Positions 53,438 to 60,161 of a stretch of 64,000 nt of DNA are shown piece by piece; the stretch's first letter is position 1; each line of letters begins with the position of its first letter. The DNA is taken from IMG/VR virus record IMGVR_UViG_3300049988_000286, positions 288,001 to 352,000 of that record. The stretch is one strand, 5' to 3'. Under the pieces are notes generated by a model, which had not been told where the DNA came from, did no database searches, and saw only the letters and a list, made by a program, of their open reading frames with translations. Made by a program: the position numbers and the translations under genes. Origin of the DNA: a virus. Its lineage: Duplodnaviria > Caudoviricetes.

Positions 53438-53694
53438 TGCAAGACGAATACCAGATCGAGAGCGATGGCCGAACAGTGTGGATCAACCATTCCTCGGGAT
53501 ACAATATGGCACGCTTCGGTGTCATGGGTATCGATATCCACAATTCCCCTGACGAACAGGAGCGAACGGGGCAGCAGTGCCTGTCCTGCACCCATGGACC
53601 TACCACGGCGGCGGATTGGGATCGTTTCGTTGAAGCGATCGAAGGATTCTTCGGCATCGAGGTAGGGGATCAGTATCGGCCGTCGAGGTTTTGA
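53437..53694 (+). CDS. hypothetical protein
   Basis: TGATG coupling; CLSCTH motif. Confidence 0.65.
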   Translation: MQDEYQIESDGRTVWINHSSGYNMARFGVMGIDIHNSPDEQERTGQQCLSCTHGPTTAADWDRFVEAIEGFFGIEVGDQYRPSRF

Positions 53695-53954
53695 TGCCGC
53701 CGATCATCCGCATAGAGGGGACGGATCGACAAGTCTACGAGACGATGCTCGAACTTCGACGCCAGCGCATCCCGTCCTGTCTGCCTCGTCGCATGTTTAG
53801 CGGCGTGTGCAACTCGCGCGCATTGATCGCTGCATGGGAGAAATACGATAGAGACGATGGCGACACGAACGTAAACCTGATGGTGCGGGAACGCGACATA
53901 GTTTTGGTGCGACTGATAAGCGAGTGCGTGGTGAGGGAGACGACGGCGCGATGA
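53694..53954 (+). CDS. array paralog 1
   Basis: LRRQRIPS...NSRAL...MVRERDIVLVRL. Confidence 0.75.
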   Translation: MPPIIRIEGTDRQVYETMLELRRQRIPSCLPRRMFSGVCNSRALIAAWEKYDRDDGDTNVNLMVRERDIVLVRLISECVVRETTAR

Positions 53955-54235
53955 TCTATCTCAAGGTAGTGGGGAAGCGGCACGCCCTTGTGACGGGAGT
54001 AAGGATTGCGCACGAACAGAGAATAGCAATCTTGATGCCGACCGATCGAGGTTCATACTTTCGTTCAACCAAACAGTGCTTTAACGATCTTTGGTATAGC
54101 GCGCCATTTGCCTCGGTATCGGATTATATTCTCTTCTGTGCCGTGCGTGAGCGTGACCTTGAGTTGTTCTGCCTGTGTCAAAGCGGGCGAGTACTGATCC
54201 TAGATCGAAACGAATGGGTTCGACAACAGCGATGA
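53951..54235 (+). CDS. array paralog 2
   Basis: EQRIAI...AVRERDLELFCL. Confidence 0.7.
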   Translation: MIYLKVVGKRHALVTGVRIAHEQRIAILMPTDRGSYFRSTKQCFNDLWYSAPFASVSDYILFCAVRERDLELFCLCQSGRVLILDRNEWVRQQR

Positions 54236-54666
54236 AGCGCAGATGTATCAGACTCGGCTATGTCCCCGAATGGAAGCCCTTCTTCGAAAGCCTTCGGCGT
54301 AATGGCATCCCGGTGCTGCGCCATCCGCGCAACCATGCCCCGTGGGGTTCTCGACTGATGATCAACTCTCTCGTGGTTGACGCCATTCCTTTATATTGTC
54401 TCGTTCGTGAACAAGACCTCGAAATGATCAAGCTGATCTCTCCCGTGTTGGTCGAGATCATTCCCCCTGTCCTCATCCCGCGAGGCTGCCCCTTCGATGG
54501 TGGACCCGGAATCTCCGGCGAGACCGATCACAGCACAGCCGAATCGCGAAGCTACTACGCGGGGTGCACATACTCCGATTGTATCGCATTCAAGGTTGCG
54601 TACGATTTCTCCTCGGAGCAGAGCGCCGTCTTGGCGTGGAATATGCGTTCTAGCTTTTCTTCTTGA
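54232..54666 (+). CDS. array paralog 3 fused to a Lar-like (restriction alleviation) C-terminal domain
   Basis: LRRNGIPV...LVREQDLEMIKL, then PRGCPFDGG...GC...C...AVLAWNMR. Confidence 0.7.
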   Translation: MKRRCIRLGYVPEWKPFFESLRRNGIPVLRHPRNHAPWGSRLMINSLVVDAIPLYCLVREQDLEMIKLISPVLVEIIPPVLIPRGCPFDGGPGISGETDHSTAESRSYYAGCTYSDCIAFKVAYDFSSEQSAVLAWNMRSSFSS

Positions 54667-54689
54667 TCGAACTGTGTAATAGAAAGTTG

Positions 54690-54950
54690 ATGAACCATCG
54701 GCTGAAATTCACGGGCCTGTTCCCCGCCGTCCGCGCCACCGTGGTGGCTTTGCGCGCGCAGGGCATTCCGTTCGTGATGCCTCGCAGCAATATCACGAAT
54801 GAAGTCTGGTCATCTCGGTTCATTGAGCGTAGCTGGATGGAGGCTCGCTGGATCGACACGCGAACCGCGTGCTTCGAAGCATTCTTCCGCGAGCGCGATA
54901 TCGACATCATTCGTCTTATCGCCTCGTGCAAGATCGAGGTTGTGGCATGA
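54690..54950 (+). CDS. array paralog 4
   Basis: LRAQGIPF...SSRF...FRERDIDIIRL. Confidence 0.75.
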   Translation: MNHRLKFTGLFPAVRATVVALRAQGIPFVMPRSNITNEVWSSRFIERSWMEARWIDTRTACFEAFFRERDIDIIRLIASCKIEVVA

Positions 54951-55234
54951 ACCGAACACTCTACCTTGAAGGCGACGAGCGCGACATCATTGCCACGCTC
55001 GTGAGTGCCCGCCAGCAAGGCATTCCTTTCATCGTCATGTCGGTGGAGTTCGTGCAAGCAACCGGTGACCTCGAAACCTTCTGCATCTCATCCCGAGATA
55101 CTATCGATGGTTGGGAGAGGGCTGCGAAGAGTTGGCCCACGATCGCCGCATTCTCCGATGCGGAGATCATCGTCCGAGATCGCGACGTAGAGATGTTCAA
55201 GCTGTTGAGCCAAGTCCCGGTGATGATCAAGTGA
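54947..55234 (+). CDS. array paralog 5
   Basis: ARQQGIPF...SSRD...IVRDRDVEMFKL. Confidence 0.75.
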   Translation: MNRTLYLEGDERDIIATLVSARQQGIPFIVMSVEFVQATGDLETFCISSRDTIDGWERAAKSWPTIAAFSDAEIIVRDRDVEMFKLLSQVPVMIK

Positions 55235-55485
55235 GGAGTTATTCTCGCTTGACCCTGTTCGGCACGATGACCGATCTCAAACACACCGTCGAGGCAGCAC
55301 GGGCAGCGGGGATACCGCTCATACATGGCTGGTCACACTTTTCATCACGCCGTTTCCTCGGCGAAATCAAATTACGCGACATGCATACCTATGAGGCTAT
55401 GATCAGGGTCAAACTCCGGACCACGGACCGCGCTCTCTTCGTCCTGCTGTGCACAGCAAGGATTATATCGCCGAACAACGCTTGA
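55231..55485 (+). CDS. array paralog 6
   Basis: GTG start; ARAAGIPL...SSRR...LRTTDRALFVL. Confidence 0.65.
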   Translation: MRSYSRLTLFGTMTDLKHTVEAARAAGIPLIHGWSHFSSRRFLGEIKLRDMHTYEAMIRVKLRTTDRALFVLLCTARIISPNNA

Positions 55486-58553: not shown

Positions 58554-58801
58554 ACCGTCGCCTTTCCCTCTATGATCAATCCGGTCATAAGATCGCACCC
58601 TTTGTCCAAGGTTTGCGCAGTCAAGGCATCCCATCTCTGTGGTCTTTCTGGATCGGCAAGCGTGGCCATGCCGCTGGACTTTCGCGTGATATTCATCACA
58701 TCAGTCTTCCATGGGCGGTAGACATTCTTGTCCGCGACTGTGATCTGGCACTCGTTATCCTCGCCATCGACTTCGATTACACCGTCTGGCCAGACGCTTG
58801 A
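58550..58801 (+). CDS. array paralog 15
   Basis: LRSQGIPS...LSRD...LVRDCDLALVIL. Confidence 0.7.
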   Translation: MNRRLSLYDQSGHKIAPFVQGLRSQGIPSLWSFWIGKRGHAAGLSRDIHHISLPWAVDILVRDCDLALVILAIDFDYTVWPDA

Positions 58802-58837
58802 ACGGTTGACTCTCTGCAACAGTTCGTCTACAGGGAT

Positions 58838-59107
58838 GTGATGGTCACCATGATGAACATCAGCGGCCCGTCCGTGAAAGAACTGGATACCGCCCTGCAC
58901 GCGCTCCGCGATCAAGGCATCCCCTTCTTCGACCGCTGCCCGTTCTGGACTACGATTCTATCGTCGAAGCAGATGCTGACACGCCTCACGGTTTCAGGCA
59001 CGCAGCAGATCATCGTCCGCGAACGCGATGTCGCAATGGTGCGCCTCATCGTTCCCAATTCAACAGTCCTGTGGGAGGACGCCCGCGATGGTAGGCTCGT
59101 GGCGTGA
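58838..59107 (+). CDS. array paralog 16
   Basis: LRDQGIPF...LSSKQ...IVRERDVAMVRL; exact start uncertain. Confidence 0.75.
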   Translation: MMVTMMNISGPSVKELDTALHALRDQGIPFFDRCPFWTTILSSKQMLTRLTVSGTQQIIVRERDVAMVRLIVPNSTVLWEDARDGRLVA

Positions 59108-59349
59108 AGATGACCGCACCGGAGTTGTTCCACGGGTGGTGGATCGTGCGCTGCCAAGCCGGAGTGGTATCTCACCGCGATGTCATGGAATGGGCTCGAA
59201 CAAACACGGGGAGGATTCGGGTGTTCTCGCATCACTGGGGTGGCAACACACCAGAGGGATGGTTTCGCAAAGGCGATGATCGCTGGGTCCATGATCTCGT
59301 CCTTGACACCGAGGACGATGCGCTGCTCTTCATGCTGGCCTTCCTGTGA
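59104..59349 (+). CDS. small hypothetical protein (DAxLFxL family) inserted in the array
   Basis: LDTEDDALLFMLAF; lacks GIPF. Confidence 0.65.
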   Translation: MKMTAPELFHGWWIVRCQAGVVSHRDVMEWARTNTGRIRVFSHHWGGNTPEGWFRKGDDRWVHDLVLDTEDDALLFMLAFL

Positions 59350-59633
59350 AACGCGCCACCCTAGACCTCACCGGCTGGTGGCCGCACATCTGCGCGCTCG
59401 TCGTTGATCTGCGCCAGCAGGGTATGCCCTTCCTCGAACGGTTCGCTTGGGGGGGCAATGACGCGCAACCGGAATACATCGGCTCAAAGCGGTGTCTCCC
59501 GCAGATCGATAGTCTTGCACACTATTGGGACACCGATGTGGTGACGATCATTGTTCGAGCCAGCGACCTTACTCTCCTGCGCCTGATGGCACCGGCGGGG
59601 CTGAAGATCGCTGAACGTCCGGTGCAGCGATGA
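59346..59633 (+). CDS. array paralog 17
   Basis: LRQQGMPF...IGSKR...IVRASDLTLLRL. Confidence 0.75.
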   Translation: MKRATLDLTGWWPHICALVVDLRQQGMPFLERFAWGGNDAQPEYIGSKRCLPQIDSLAHYWDTDVVTIIVRASDLTLLRLMAPAGLKIAERPVQR

Positions 59634-59914
59634 AACGCGCTACCCTCGTGATCGAATTCGAATCCACACCTCTGCTCAACTTCTTGCGAGAGTTGCGACA
59701 ACAAGGCGTGCCGTTTTTGGAGCATTACTGCGAACTCCCCAATGCCCCGATTAAGTTTATTGGCTCAAAGCTTGCCATCAAGGAGATCGATGACTACTGC
59801 GCAGGTGGACCGGGTATCTTGGAGACGATCCTGATCATCCGGGATCGCGATCTCCCGATGGTGCGCTTGATGGCACCATCGGAAATGGCTCTTGATTATT
59901 TGATCTATGGCTAA
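59630..59914 (+). CDS. array paralog 18
   Basis: LRQQGVPF...IGSKL...IIRDRDLPMVRL; closest to paralog 17 (both start MKRATL). Confidence 0.75.
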   Translation: MKRATLVIEFESTPLLNFLRELRQQGVPFLEHYCELPNAPIKFIGSKLAIKEIDDYCAGGPGILETILIIRDRDLPMVRLMAPSEMALDYLIYG

Positions 59915-60161
59915 TTGTCGGCTTCTCCTCGGGGGACAACAACCCGCCCCTCTCCTCTCTACCATGCGGGCGATGCGTCAAAACGGCATCCCGTTCTTCT
60001 TCAAAATGGAAAACGTCACGCAGGTGAATTCACGCAGCCTGATCGGTTATGCGTCGAAGGATCAACGCACATACCAGTACGTAATCGTCCGCGAGCGTGA
60101 CCTCGACATGATCCACTTGCTCGCGACGGTGACGGTTCAGCCCTCAAGCGTTGTTAGATGA
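59907..60161 (+). CDS. array paralog 19
   Basis: MRQNGIPF...VNSRSL...IVRERDLDMIHL. Confidence 0.75.
   Translation: MANCRLLLGGQQPAPLLSTMRAMRQNGIPFFFKMENVTQVNSRSLIGYASKDQRTYQYVIVRERDLDMIHLLATVTVQPSSVVR

Follow-up and report, generated by a model that had tools for sequence, protein, structure and literature searches.

Large eukaryotic DNA viruses carry multigene families, such as MGF110, MGF360 and MGF505 of African swine fever virus and the ankyrin and Bcl-2-like families of poxviruses, which are lineage-specific tandem paralogues of varying copy number between strains, and which generally have roles in host range and immune evasion. Tandem paralogue arrays of jumbo phages have already been published for phage G and 121Q (2017, mBio, PMC5646251); like the array described here, these are long head-to-tail arrays in very large phage genomes, and they were ascribed to tandem duplication. 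The poly-immunity loci of polymorphic toxin systems (SUKH and other Imm families; Zhang, Iyer and Aravind 2011/2012; PMC3113570, PMC3482391) likewise consist of small, diverged single-domain paralogues in tandem that have a common fold but differ in their surfaces, and immunity-type arrays are also found in DNA viruses. The internal proteins of T4 (IPI*, IPII, IPIII) and their T-even counterparts share with the array family their small size (~76–100 aa), high diversity and location in plastic T4-type regions, and IPI* serves specifically to inhibit a restriction enzyme of the host (PMC3012670).

The array lies in a 64,000-nt stretch (the window) of the 499,572-bp genome of an uncultivated, leaf-associated phage. 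At 53694–60161 on the plus strand, the window contains 20 open reading frames of one protein family, interrupted by one unrelated 311-aa gene. The earlier note had counted 19 genes and had not mentioned the 311-aa gene; its 18 intact and one truncated copies were recovered, but the total is 20 with the degenerate member 17. The orthologous array of a related strain (L001) is collinear with it and 88% identical in nucleotide sequence. The features, in window coordinates, are as follows:

51511–52197, ADP-ribosyltransferase (ART)-like gene, upstream of the array
53422–53694, plus strand, conserved 90-aa gene directly before the array, marking its fixed site
53694–53954, plus strand, member 1, 86 aa; start codon overlapping the 90-aa gene's stop
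53951–54235, plus strand, member 2, 94 aa; ATGA overlap; GIPF motif degenerate (RIAI)
54232–54666, plus strand, member 3, 144 aa; the domain, then a ~55-aa Cys-containing C-terminal extension
54690–54950, plus strand, member 4, 86 aa from ATG; with TTG 54663 as the alternative start, it would overlap the preceding stop
54947–55234, plus strand, member 5, 95 aa; ATGA overlap
55231–55485, plus strand, member 6, 84 aa; GTGA overlap
55529–56464, plus strand, 311-aa gene unrelated to the family; sub-threshold KOW motif
56475–56678, plus strand, member 7, truncated, 67 aa; N-terminal half only (strand 1, helix 1 and GVPF)
56671–56937, plus strand, member 8, 88 aa
56967–57242, plus strand, member 9, 91 aa
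57239–57484, plus strand, member 10, 81 aa; L001 orthologue 93% identical
57481–57783, plus strand, member 11, 100 aa; L001 orthologue 90% identical
57780–58046, plus strand, member 12, 88 aa; L001 orthologue 85% identical
58015–58296, plus strand, member 13, 93 aa; 32-nt overlap; L001 orthologue 77% identical
58293–58553, plus strand, member 14, 86 aa; L001 orthologue 79% identical
58550–58801, plus strand, member 15, 83 aa; L001 orthologue 91% identical
58850–59107, plus strand, member 16, 85 aa from ATG 58850 (alternative GTG 58838); L001 orthologue 92% identical
59104–59349, plus strand, member 17, degenerate, 81 aa; C-terminal two thirds align; strand 1, helix 1 and GIPF missing; R71 replaced by D
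59346–59633, plus strand, member 18, 95 aa
59630–59914, plus strand, member 19, 94 aa; sequence used for the AF2 model
59907–60161, plus strand, member 20, 84 aa; end of the array, followed by a TAAATA late-type box at 60167

Most junctions are 4-nt ATGA, GTGA or TTGA overlaps: the count is 12–14 of 20, depending on two start choices, and the remaining junctions comprise three overlaps of 8, 8 and 32 nt and four gaps of 10–43 nt. An SD-like motif was found at only 7 of 21 starts. For the interrupting 311-aa gene, neither the related loci nor IMG/VR yielded a relative.

The mutual homology of these genes is far above chance, which bears out their description as paralogues: a profile built from the array re-found its members with E values of 1e-20 to 1e-26, the truncated copy with 9e-10 and the degenerate one with 2e-8. 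A wider family profile detected about 37 copies genome-wide, 18 of them dispersed outside the array, and a profile search covering 1.84 billion proteins brought up no more than 67 external relatives, which are without exception small and unnamed. There was no match to one member searched by tblastn against 50,697 phage records. The earlier note had not recognised the family, and indeed no description of it was found in Pfam 2025 (all 20 members, no family at E≤1 apart from a sub-threshold Lar-like match on the extension of member 3, E about 0.007–0.009, and a weak ThiC-associated match, E 0.25), in PHROGs (three canonical members and member 3 scanned), in PADLOC or among PDB sequences (none at E<0.1). 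Profile searches of Pfam 2025 and PHROGs likewise matched no member to any anti-defence or inhibitor family. In the same window, Pfam 2025 recognised Acb1. This is an old, lineage-specific family of stand-alone, ~90-residue single-domain proteins from a clade of uncultivated T4-related megaphages.

The motif layout that had been read from the array by eye held up across 104 sequences, in which the most conserved positions were R23 (87%), G26 (75%), I27 (72%), P28 (92%), F29 (66%), S46 (88%), R/K47 (95%), R71 (99%) and D74 (100%), and in which the N-terminus follows the consensus M-N-x-x-(I/L)-x-(I/L)-x-G. The proposed fixed scaffold with variable loops was also recovered: two segments vary in length (7–34 and 16–36 residues), and the others are fixed (sd 0.3–1.2). 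The length variation falls in b2-b3 and a2-b4 and nowhere else. Additionally, the pI of members ranges from 4.6 to 11.8, and the exposed sheet face lacks conservation across the family.

The AF2 model of member 19 (pLDDT 92.4, pTM 0.82) has the topology b1-a1-b2-b3-a2-b4-a3-b5, that is, a ferredoxin-like core (b1-a1-b2-b3-a2-b4, antiparallel sheet, two helices) with an extra helix and strand (DSSP: E3-11 H12-24 E29-33 E42-45 H46-58 E63-71, then H72-81 E87-93), so that each protein of the family would be a ferredoxin-like two-layer sandwich. Its top structural neighbours were all generic ferredoxin-like domains with Z 5.6–7.8: 1kwm was the best (Z 7.8, 72 residues, rmsd 2.1), domain V of EF-G/TetM/LepA scored 7.0, and ACT and CutA scored 5.6–6.6, all of these values (<8) being in the range typical of models without a true relative, with sequence identities of 2–17%. 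The invariant residues (R23, GIP, S46, R47, R71, D74) fall at the a1/b2, b3/a2 and b4/a3 junctions. Judging by topology rather than by coordinates, they should cluster at one pole of the modelled domain, which would also hold the N-termini of helices 2 and 3, and the variable-length loops should lie at the opposite pole. Rather than making up a functional site, the conserved charged and polar residues could be buried and form a structural network.

Pairwise identity of the copies averages 24% (range 11–34%), and it is flat over array distance, neighbouring copies being no more similar than distant ones. In a tree, array members were interleaved with sequences from other phages. The low mean identity and the lack of a neighbour effect indicate an old family, and, together with the interleaving, they contradict the "gene accordion" of the earlier note in the sense of recent amplification. 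Its observation that the DNA is too diverged for long repeats was correct, as the only repeats left are of 20–36 nt with 62–85% identity, over two motif-coding segments. We also considered a recent dosage-amplifying accordion of the poxvirus K3L type, the mark of which is near-identical tandem copies with neighbours most alike; this pattern was absent from the array.

In the comparison with L001, dN/dS was 0.19–0.48 per gene and 0.29 overall, with 0.25 for the core and 0.35–0.39 for the loops (a single pairwise comparison of seven genes, with low power), and amino-acid differences amounted to 10% in the core and 33–38% in the loops. Contigs from further runs, 90–97% alike, span most of the array. 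Thus, individual copies are maintained by purifying selection. Positive selection, which would appear as dN/dS >1 in the loops or on the surface, was not found in this one low-power comparison, and because all values were below 1, an arms race is not demonstrated; the "diversifying selection" proposed earlier is not supported by these figures.

Related contigs carry 1, 3, 6, 7 or 16 tandem copies behind the same conserved upstream genes, compared with 20 here. The 90-aa gene (53422–53694) precedes the array in every related contig with 55–69% identity, and flanking genes across these contigs are 37–69% identical. Between this array and those of the 1-, 3-, 6-, 7- and 16-copy contigs, collinear orthology was absent, and the best matches were 24–40% identical. 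The cultured phage CcrSC shares the upstream gene, and the family is absent from it. With 1–20 copies at the same locus in relatives and its absence from CcrSC, the family is accessory and does not serve a housekeeping role. The orthologous site holds different numbers of copies in different phages, orthologues no longer pair one to one among the more distant relatives, and truncated and degenerate copies are present. The family evolves by birth and death, with its position in the genome unchanged.

The window has more TAAATA boxes than expected (23 against 5.3), and they are located before genes. None was found from 46103 up to 60167, and none lies directly before any of the 18 dispersed copies. 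The phage was not found in any RNA run. The pattern of boxes suggests expression of the array genes before the late phase. The 20 genes would probably form one long message without late-type promoters, translated mostly by termination-reinitiation at overlapping stop and start codons, and synthesis of the whole set would then coincide and precede the late phase.

We tentatively favour, as a possible explanation of these features, a birth-and-death family of host-directed binders expressed before the late phase. An activity common to all members would probably reside in the invariant pole, namely docking to the same partner or to a ligand that is anionic or carries phosphate. Specificity would differ from member to member through the variable pole with its two loops, the exposed face of the sheet and the net charge, all of which vary between copies. 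The proposed function would be binding, and the preferred targets would be variable host proteins, bound or inhibited in host takeover or counter-defence; a panel of candidate anti-defence proteins or inhibitors is plausible. A related and distinctly improbable version is a library of specificity adaptors, in which the invariant pole would dock on a shared phage effector (e.g., the co-located ADP-ribosyltransferase-like enzyme) or on one host machine. Each adaptor would bind its own host protein through the hypervariable pole, and one enzyme could thereby be redirected to many targets; if true, the family would parallel, in a prokaryotic virus, the expanded F-box, BTB and ankyrin adaptor families of large eukaryotic viruses.

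Host-directed binding has to be weighed against readings in which the conserved pole, the tandem arrangement or the coupling of the genes is the essential feature. The near-invariance of R71, D74, S46 and R23 in a family of ~24% identity, their predicted position at two helix N-termini (an arrangement classic for anion binding), and the presence of ACT, PII/CutA and cyclic-di-AMP-receptor domains among the structural neighbours would fit a domain that binds a common phosphate-bearing small molecule (a nucleotide signal, or an NAD or ADP-ribose derivative) or an RNA or DNA backbone, as do ACT, PII and small ferredoxin-like sensors or sponges; the loops would then be unconstrained, and the copies would serve dosage or shifted affinities. 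We consider this unlikely, since those structural matches are generic, Pfam gave no significant profile match to ACT, PII or CutA, and the ligand site of ACT, the b1-a1 loop, falls at the variable pole of the family. Moreover, dosage poorly explains 76% divergence and the spread of pI, and the loops are more conserved within orthologue pairs than among paralogues. A poly-immunity-like locus, in which each member would act against a separate toxin (abortive-infection or toxin-antitoxin effectors of the host, toxins from competing elements, or packaged enzymes of the phage itself, e.g., ADP-ribosyltransferases), is suggested by the tandem diverged small paralogues, a hallmark of immunity loci including those of DNA viruses (PMC3113570, PMC3482391), by a probable R-S-ExE ADP-ribosyltransferase 1.5 kb upstream in all related contigs and by an ART-PolyVal gene 3 kb upstream of the L005 array. 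It is nevertheless improbable: the upstream ART-like gene is conserved as a single-copy orthologue (37–43% identity) and does not show the swapped C-termini of polymorphic toxins, there are five further genes between it and the array, no ART paralogue lies near any of the 18 dispersed copies, and an active-site-like invariant polar set is rare in immunity families. Nor is a toxin gene whose C-terminal toxin domain varies found immediately before the array, the nearest enzyme-like gene being the ART-like one.

The very plastic copy number would also be expected of genome filler, in which tandem duplication fills a larger capsid with individually functionless copies, as proposed for phage G and 121Q (Hua et al.). 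This reading is disfavoured by the purifying selection on each gene, and we regard it as very unlikely: at ~76% divergence, none of the 18 canonical copies has lost its open frame or the invariant residues, only two copies are degenerate, and the coupling overlaps are maintained. That coupling, and the frequent oligomerisation of small ferredoxin-like proteins (PII, CutA, ACT), could instead point to one hetero-oligomeric assembly, as the earlier note had suggested, with its subunits produced in the same amount. The obligate form of such an assembly is hard to square with 1, 3, 6, 7, 16 or 20 copies at the locus in relatives without one-to-one orthology, with an unconserved sheet face, and with copies scattered singly through the genome, and we see little chance of it. 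Least probable of all are capsid-packaged proteins ejected with the DNA; although defence inhibition is the role of the small and diverse internal proteins of T4 (PMC3012670), an (L/I/V)xE cutting motif occurs within the first 13 residues of only 7 of 87 members, the N-terminus is modelled as core strand 1 (pLDDT >90), and no copy is preceded by a late TAAATA box, unlike genes just downstream, each of which has one. T4-type internal proteins are marked by a leader ending in an (L/I)xE protease site and by late expression, and the motif counts and the TAAATA boxes point to neither in the family.

The host-directed binder family that we prefer thus differs from each of its closest counterparts. 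The copies in phage G and 121Q were described as very similar (PMC5646251), whereas those here have diverged to 24% mean identity with purifying selection on each copy, and tblastn against the 50,697 phage records and the profile search of 1.84 billion proteins showed no sequence relation between them. Unlike poly-immunity loci, the array has no adjacent polymorphic toxin, belongs to another fold and sequence family, bears a near-invariant set of polar residues, and is located in a lytic T4-type megaphage operon. The T4 internal proteins share only a targeting leader and are packaged, whereas the array family shares a whole domain, with few cleavage motifs and no late promoter; the inhibitory role of IPI* is nonetheless the kind of function that we favour. 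Small ferredoxin-like domains (the procarboxypeptidase activation domain, EF-G domain V, ACT, PII/CutA and uS10) have the same order of secondary structures and the same two-layer sandwich, without the extra helix 3 and strand 5 or the R/S/R/R/D residue set. To our knowledge, the multigene families of large eukaryotic DNA viruses have no sequence relation to the array family, and their hosts, folds and genome biology differ from it, but they are alike in lineage-specific tandem paralogy and in the variation of copy number.

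The stretch at 53694-60161 (+) contains 20 ORFs of one family, all on the + strand. The earlier note had described 19 diverged tandem paralogues there; the array itself held at these limits and on this strand, but the count did not, and a gene of 311 aa lying between the members had gone unmentioned. The mutual homology of the members was borne out, as a profile built from the array recovered them at E values of 1e-20 to 1e-26. Eighteen of the 20 ORFs are canonical, encoding 81-100 aa except for one that a C-terminal extension brings to 144 aa. The remaining two family ORFs and the interrupting gene are as follows:

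56475-56678, +, truncated family ORF, cut after its first half
59104-59349, +, degenerate family ORF, recognisable only in its C-terminal two thirds
55529-56464, +, unrelated 311-aa gene between members 6 and 7, with the truncated family copy directly after it

The 311-aa gene has a sub-threshold KOW motif at residues 257-279 and recurs in a contig of another run that is about 95% alike; no relatives of it were found in the related loci and contigs or in IMG/VR. With starts picked next to the preceding stop, 12-14 of the gene junctions are 4-nt ATGA, GTGA or TTGA overlaps; at another three the genes overlap by more than 4 nt, and at four they are separated by 10-43 nt. Since a Shine-Dalgarno-like motif precedes only 7 of the 21 starts in the array, which is not a significant enrichment over the 19% background (p 0.09), translation of the array probably proceeds by termination-reinitiation. 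An exact 13-nt repeat, CGAACTGTGTAAT, occurs at 54668-54680 and 55496-55508, about 20 nt 5' of the ATG starts of member 4 (54690) and of the inserted 311-aa gene (55529), and may serve inside the array as a regulatory or initiation element. The C-terminal extension belongs to member 3 (54232-54666, +); it comprises about 55 residues, contains Cys, and matches the Lar family of restriction-alleviation proteins weakly, below the threshold (PF14354, E 0.007-0.009).

The family is not restricted to the array. A wider profile detected 37 copies genome-wide, of which 19 belong to the array and 18 are dispersed, a count that leaves out the degenerate member, which falls below the threshold of this profile; the dispersed copies form small clusters at about 107, 126, 271-275, 358-379, 396-400 and 469-470 kb, and the family takes up about 2% of the 500-kb genome. 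When 1.84 billion representative proteins were searched with a profile, 89 matched, 20 from the same genome and 69 from elsewhere. We kept 67 of the 69 as relatives (all 73-138 aa), setting aside one protein of 1480 aa and another of 185 aa that matched in two stretches. Apparent domain fusions to longer proteins were rejected as stop-to-stop ORF artefacts, since a start codon lies inside each of them, shortly before strand 1. The only name attached to any relative came from a MAG labelled as Oxalobacteraceae and read 'hypothetical protein'. The family had not been recognised from the sequence, and searches of Pfam, PHROGs, PADLOC and PDB sequences likewise assigned it to no known family; a tblastn search of 50,697 phage records with one member found no match. 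A 494-aa protein matched the profile weakly in its 'AREQGV' segment (E 0.003), which would have pointed to the PEP-utiliser mobile domain; this match was judged to be a local helix-Gly-Ile-Pro-strand resemblance only. The family is confined to one uncultivated clade.

An AlphaFold2 model from a 20-sequence alignment (pLDDT 92.4, pTM 0.82) predicted the topology b1-a1-b2-b3-a2-b4-a3-b5, a ferredoxin-like double b-a-b core with an extra helix and strand. Its structural neighbours in Foldseek (PDB, AFDB clusters, BFVD), VIA-align (48,161 chains) and ESM Atlas were solely generic ferredoxin-like domains, among them the procarboxypeptidase prodomain (Z 7.8), domain V of EF-G/TetM/LepA (Z 7), ACT, PII/CutA and uS10, the VIA-align Z scores lying in the range that the tool states to be usual for models without a true relative. 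The predicted fold class is clear, and no homologue was identified. An HPr-like fold, which has the same order of elements (b-a-b-b-a-b-a) and likewise a Ser where helix 2 begins, was rejected, as no HPr chain appeared among the structural neighbours.

Among 104 sequences, the positions conserved beyond the alternating hydrophobic core are G10, R23 (87%), Q25-G26-I27-P28-F29 (P 92%), S45-S46-R/K47 (S46 88%), W53, and R71 (99%)-E/D72-R73-D74 (100%), and the three conserved motifs fall at the a1/b2, b3/a2 and b4/a3 junctions of the model. Judged from topology, not coordinates, all three would lie at one pole, where helices 2 and 3 also have their N-termini, because the geometry of the ferredoxin-like fold brings these junctions together; by the same topology, the b2-b3 hairpin and the a2-b4 connection would lie at the opposite pole. 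Length variation is limited to these two segments (7-34 and 16-36 residues, respectively; sd 0.3-1.2 elsewhere), those positions of strands 1 and 4 that face outward also vary in the 104 sequences, and the pI of the members ranges from 4.6 to 11.8.

The window corresponds to bases 288001-352000 of one 499,572-bp contig. Among its products are an Acb1 anti-CBASS protein, a class I ribonucleotide reductase and a gp15-like tail-sheath stabiliser of the T4 type. The window contains the hexamer TAAATA 23 times, against 5.3 expected, typically a few bases ahead of gene starts, and so the hexamer behaves like a T4-type late-promoter box. Such a box precedes each of the four genes directly downstream of the array, but none is present on the + strand of 46103-60167 and none lies directly 5' of any of the 18 dispersed copies, two of which have one about 1.3 kb upstream. 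Inside the array, a simple scan found no sigma-70 or terminator signals above background. Because of these absences, we infer that the array is expressed polycistronically before the late phase. In a search of sequencing runs, several studies of leaf and phyllosphere metagenomes contained DNA matching the array, and no RNA runs with the phage were found.

Two genes upstream of the array are of note:

51511-52197, +, ART-like gene, phrog_4776 ('unknown function'), 1.5 kb upstream of the array
53422-53694, +, 90-aa gene, its stop overlapping the start of member 1; no family match

Distant relatives keep a series of upstream genes, with homologues of 48358-49692, 50771-51316, 51511-52197, 52710-52997 and 53422-53694 that are 34-69% identical (37-69% if the homologue of 50771 in contig L007 is excluded). 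Behind them, the number of family copies varies among the related metagenome contigs: one in L007 (95 kb), three in L002, six in L005, seven in L009 (a short contig in which upstream synteny is not visible), and 16 plus 1 in L010 (340 kb). No collinear orthology was found between the arrays of the relatives and that of the window, the best matches being 24-40% identical, no better than paralogues. With copy number ranging from 1 to 20 behind conserved genes, the array evolves by birth and death at a fixed site, which the 90-aa gene marks. Four related contigs carry this gene at 55-69% identity, and homologues (31-43% identical) occur in the giant Caulobacter phages CcrSC, CcrBL9, C1, C2, RB23, J4 and BL47 and in virus Rctr197k; no family member was found in the cultured phage CcrSC, although it has the homologue.

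The ART-like gene is probably a Mod-like ADP-ribosyltransferase. Five orthologues share invariant YRG, SWT and ExE(I/V)V.P motifs, which make up the R-S-ExE signature of these enzymes. Foldseek matches to its AlphaFold2 model (pLDDT 85.8) were all weak (E 0.08-2), and most of them, including most of the best ten, were ART-fold proteins: Tpt1/KptA, Rhs ART toxins, ExoS, PARPs (PARP10/14) and ART2.2. The gene is syntenic with the array in all relatives where the upstream region is visible. A functional link to the array is only a possibility, since no paralogues of the gene lie near the 18 dispersed copies in the genome. Beside it, the overlapping genes 52181-52471 and 52462-52743 (+), of 96 and 93 aa, are mutual paralogues (29% identity, E 1e-4) and make up another small tandem family, which matches nothing in Pfam. 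In L005, an ART-PolyVal (PF18760) protein (5180-5626) begins with MRNWIDII, the same N-terminal tag as in the MRNWINLVE proteins just downstream of the window array (about 60665, 61167 and 61830), so the tag is common to the clade.

Within the array, pairwise identity averages 24% (11-34%) and does not drop with distance; surviving DNA repeats measure only 20-36 nt, at 62-85% identity, over motif-coding segments. In a tree whose resolution is poor because the sequences are very short, array members clustered no more than shuffled labels (16 changes versus 16.7) and were interleaved with sequences of other phages. A closer comparison was provided by L001, a related 1.8-kb contig from another assembly, which is collinear with members 10-16 and 88% identical to them in nucleotide sequence. 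Against it, dN/dS (Nei-Gojobori) was 0.19-0.48 per gene and 0.29 overall, and residues differed at 10% of core positions (omega 0.25) and at 33-38% in the two loops (omega 0.35-0.39). On the strength of these values, individual copies are maintained, with the loops evolving faster. Positive selection was not seen in this one comparison of low power, omega being below 1 in core and loops, and the diversifying selection that the earlier note had expected is thus not supported. The dS values across 57239-59107 span a tenfold range between adjacent genes, from 0.07 at members 10 and 16 to 0.76 at member 14, which suggests a mosaic history of the array, with recombination among lineages. Contigs from two further runs, 90-97% alike, span most of the array, including the 311-aa gene. 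No joint skipping a whole gene, as expected of copy-number polymorphism among close strains, was found in these low-depth contigs, only one replaced segment: at 57131-57225, in the C-terminal half of member 9, a 93-nt stretch gives way to 90 unlike letters in a contig of run X4 while both sides match, so that this segment is locally swapped or hyper-diverged.

Taken together, the data fit an old, accessory, fast-turnover family whose members are small folded proteins produced jointly ahead of the late phase, each with, as modelled, one invariant and one individual pole. We tentatively favour a panel of host-directed binders or inhibitors, a reading that is possible, short of probable. The main rival, itself unlikely, is a domain that binds a common ligand or nucleic acid, in which only the invariant pole would matter. 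Immunity-like proteins are distinctly unlikely; poly-immunity loci are known diverged tandem arrays of small proteins (PMC3113570, PMC3482391).

That the copies are duplication filler is very improbable, as they are under purifying selection, and it is less probable again that they are subunits of a hetero-oligomer, given that related loci carry anything from 1 to 20 copies. Least credible of all are packaged internal proteins: in T4 these are diverse, small, dedicated inhibitors of host restriction (PMC3012670), but here the cleavage motif is missing in 80 of 87 sequences and a late promoter is absent. If the favoured panel of host-directed proteins did consist of inhibitors, it would offer a ready set of new reagents for targeting the defence or core proteins of bacteria, as the proteins are small, soluble-looking and easily expressed singly.

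Hundreds of genes in huge phages lack an explanation, and the manner and cause of the growth of such genomes are an open question. The family pairs a confident, compact predicted fold and polarised conservation with long-term copy-number turnover and short-term purifying selection, and this combination makes it a tractable test case for whether paralogue arrays of jumbo phages are duplication filler, as proposed for phage G and 121Q (PMC5646251), or working repertoires against variable host targets. Compared with the arrays of these two phages, with poly-immunity loci and with T4 internal proteins, the family is undescribed, its divergence is extreme yet each copy is retained, and its conservation pattern is polarised.
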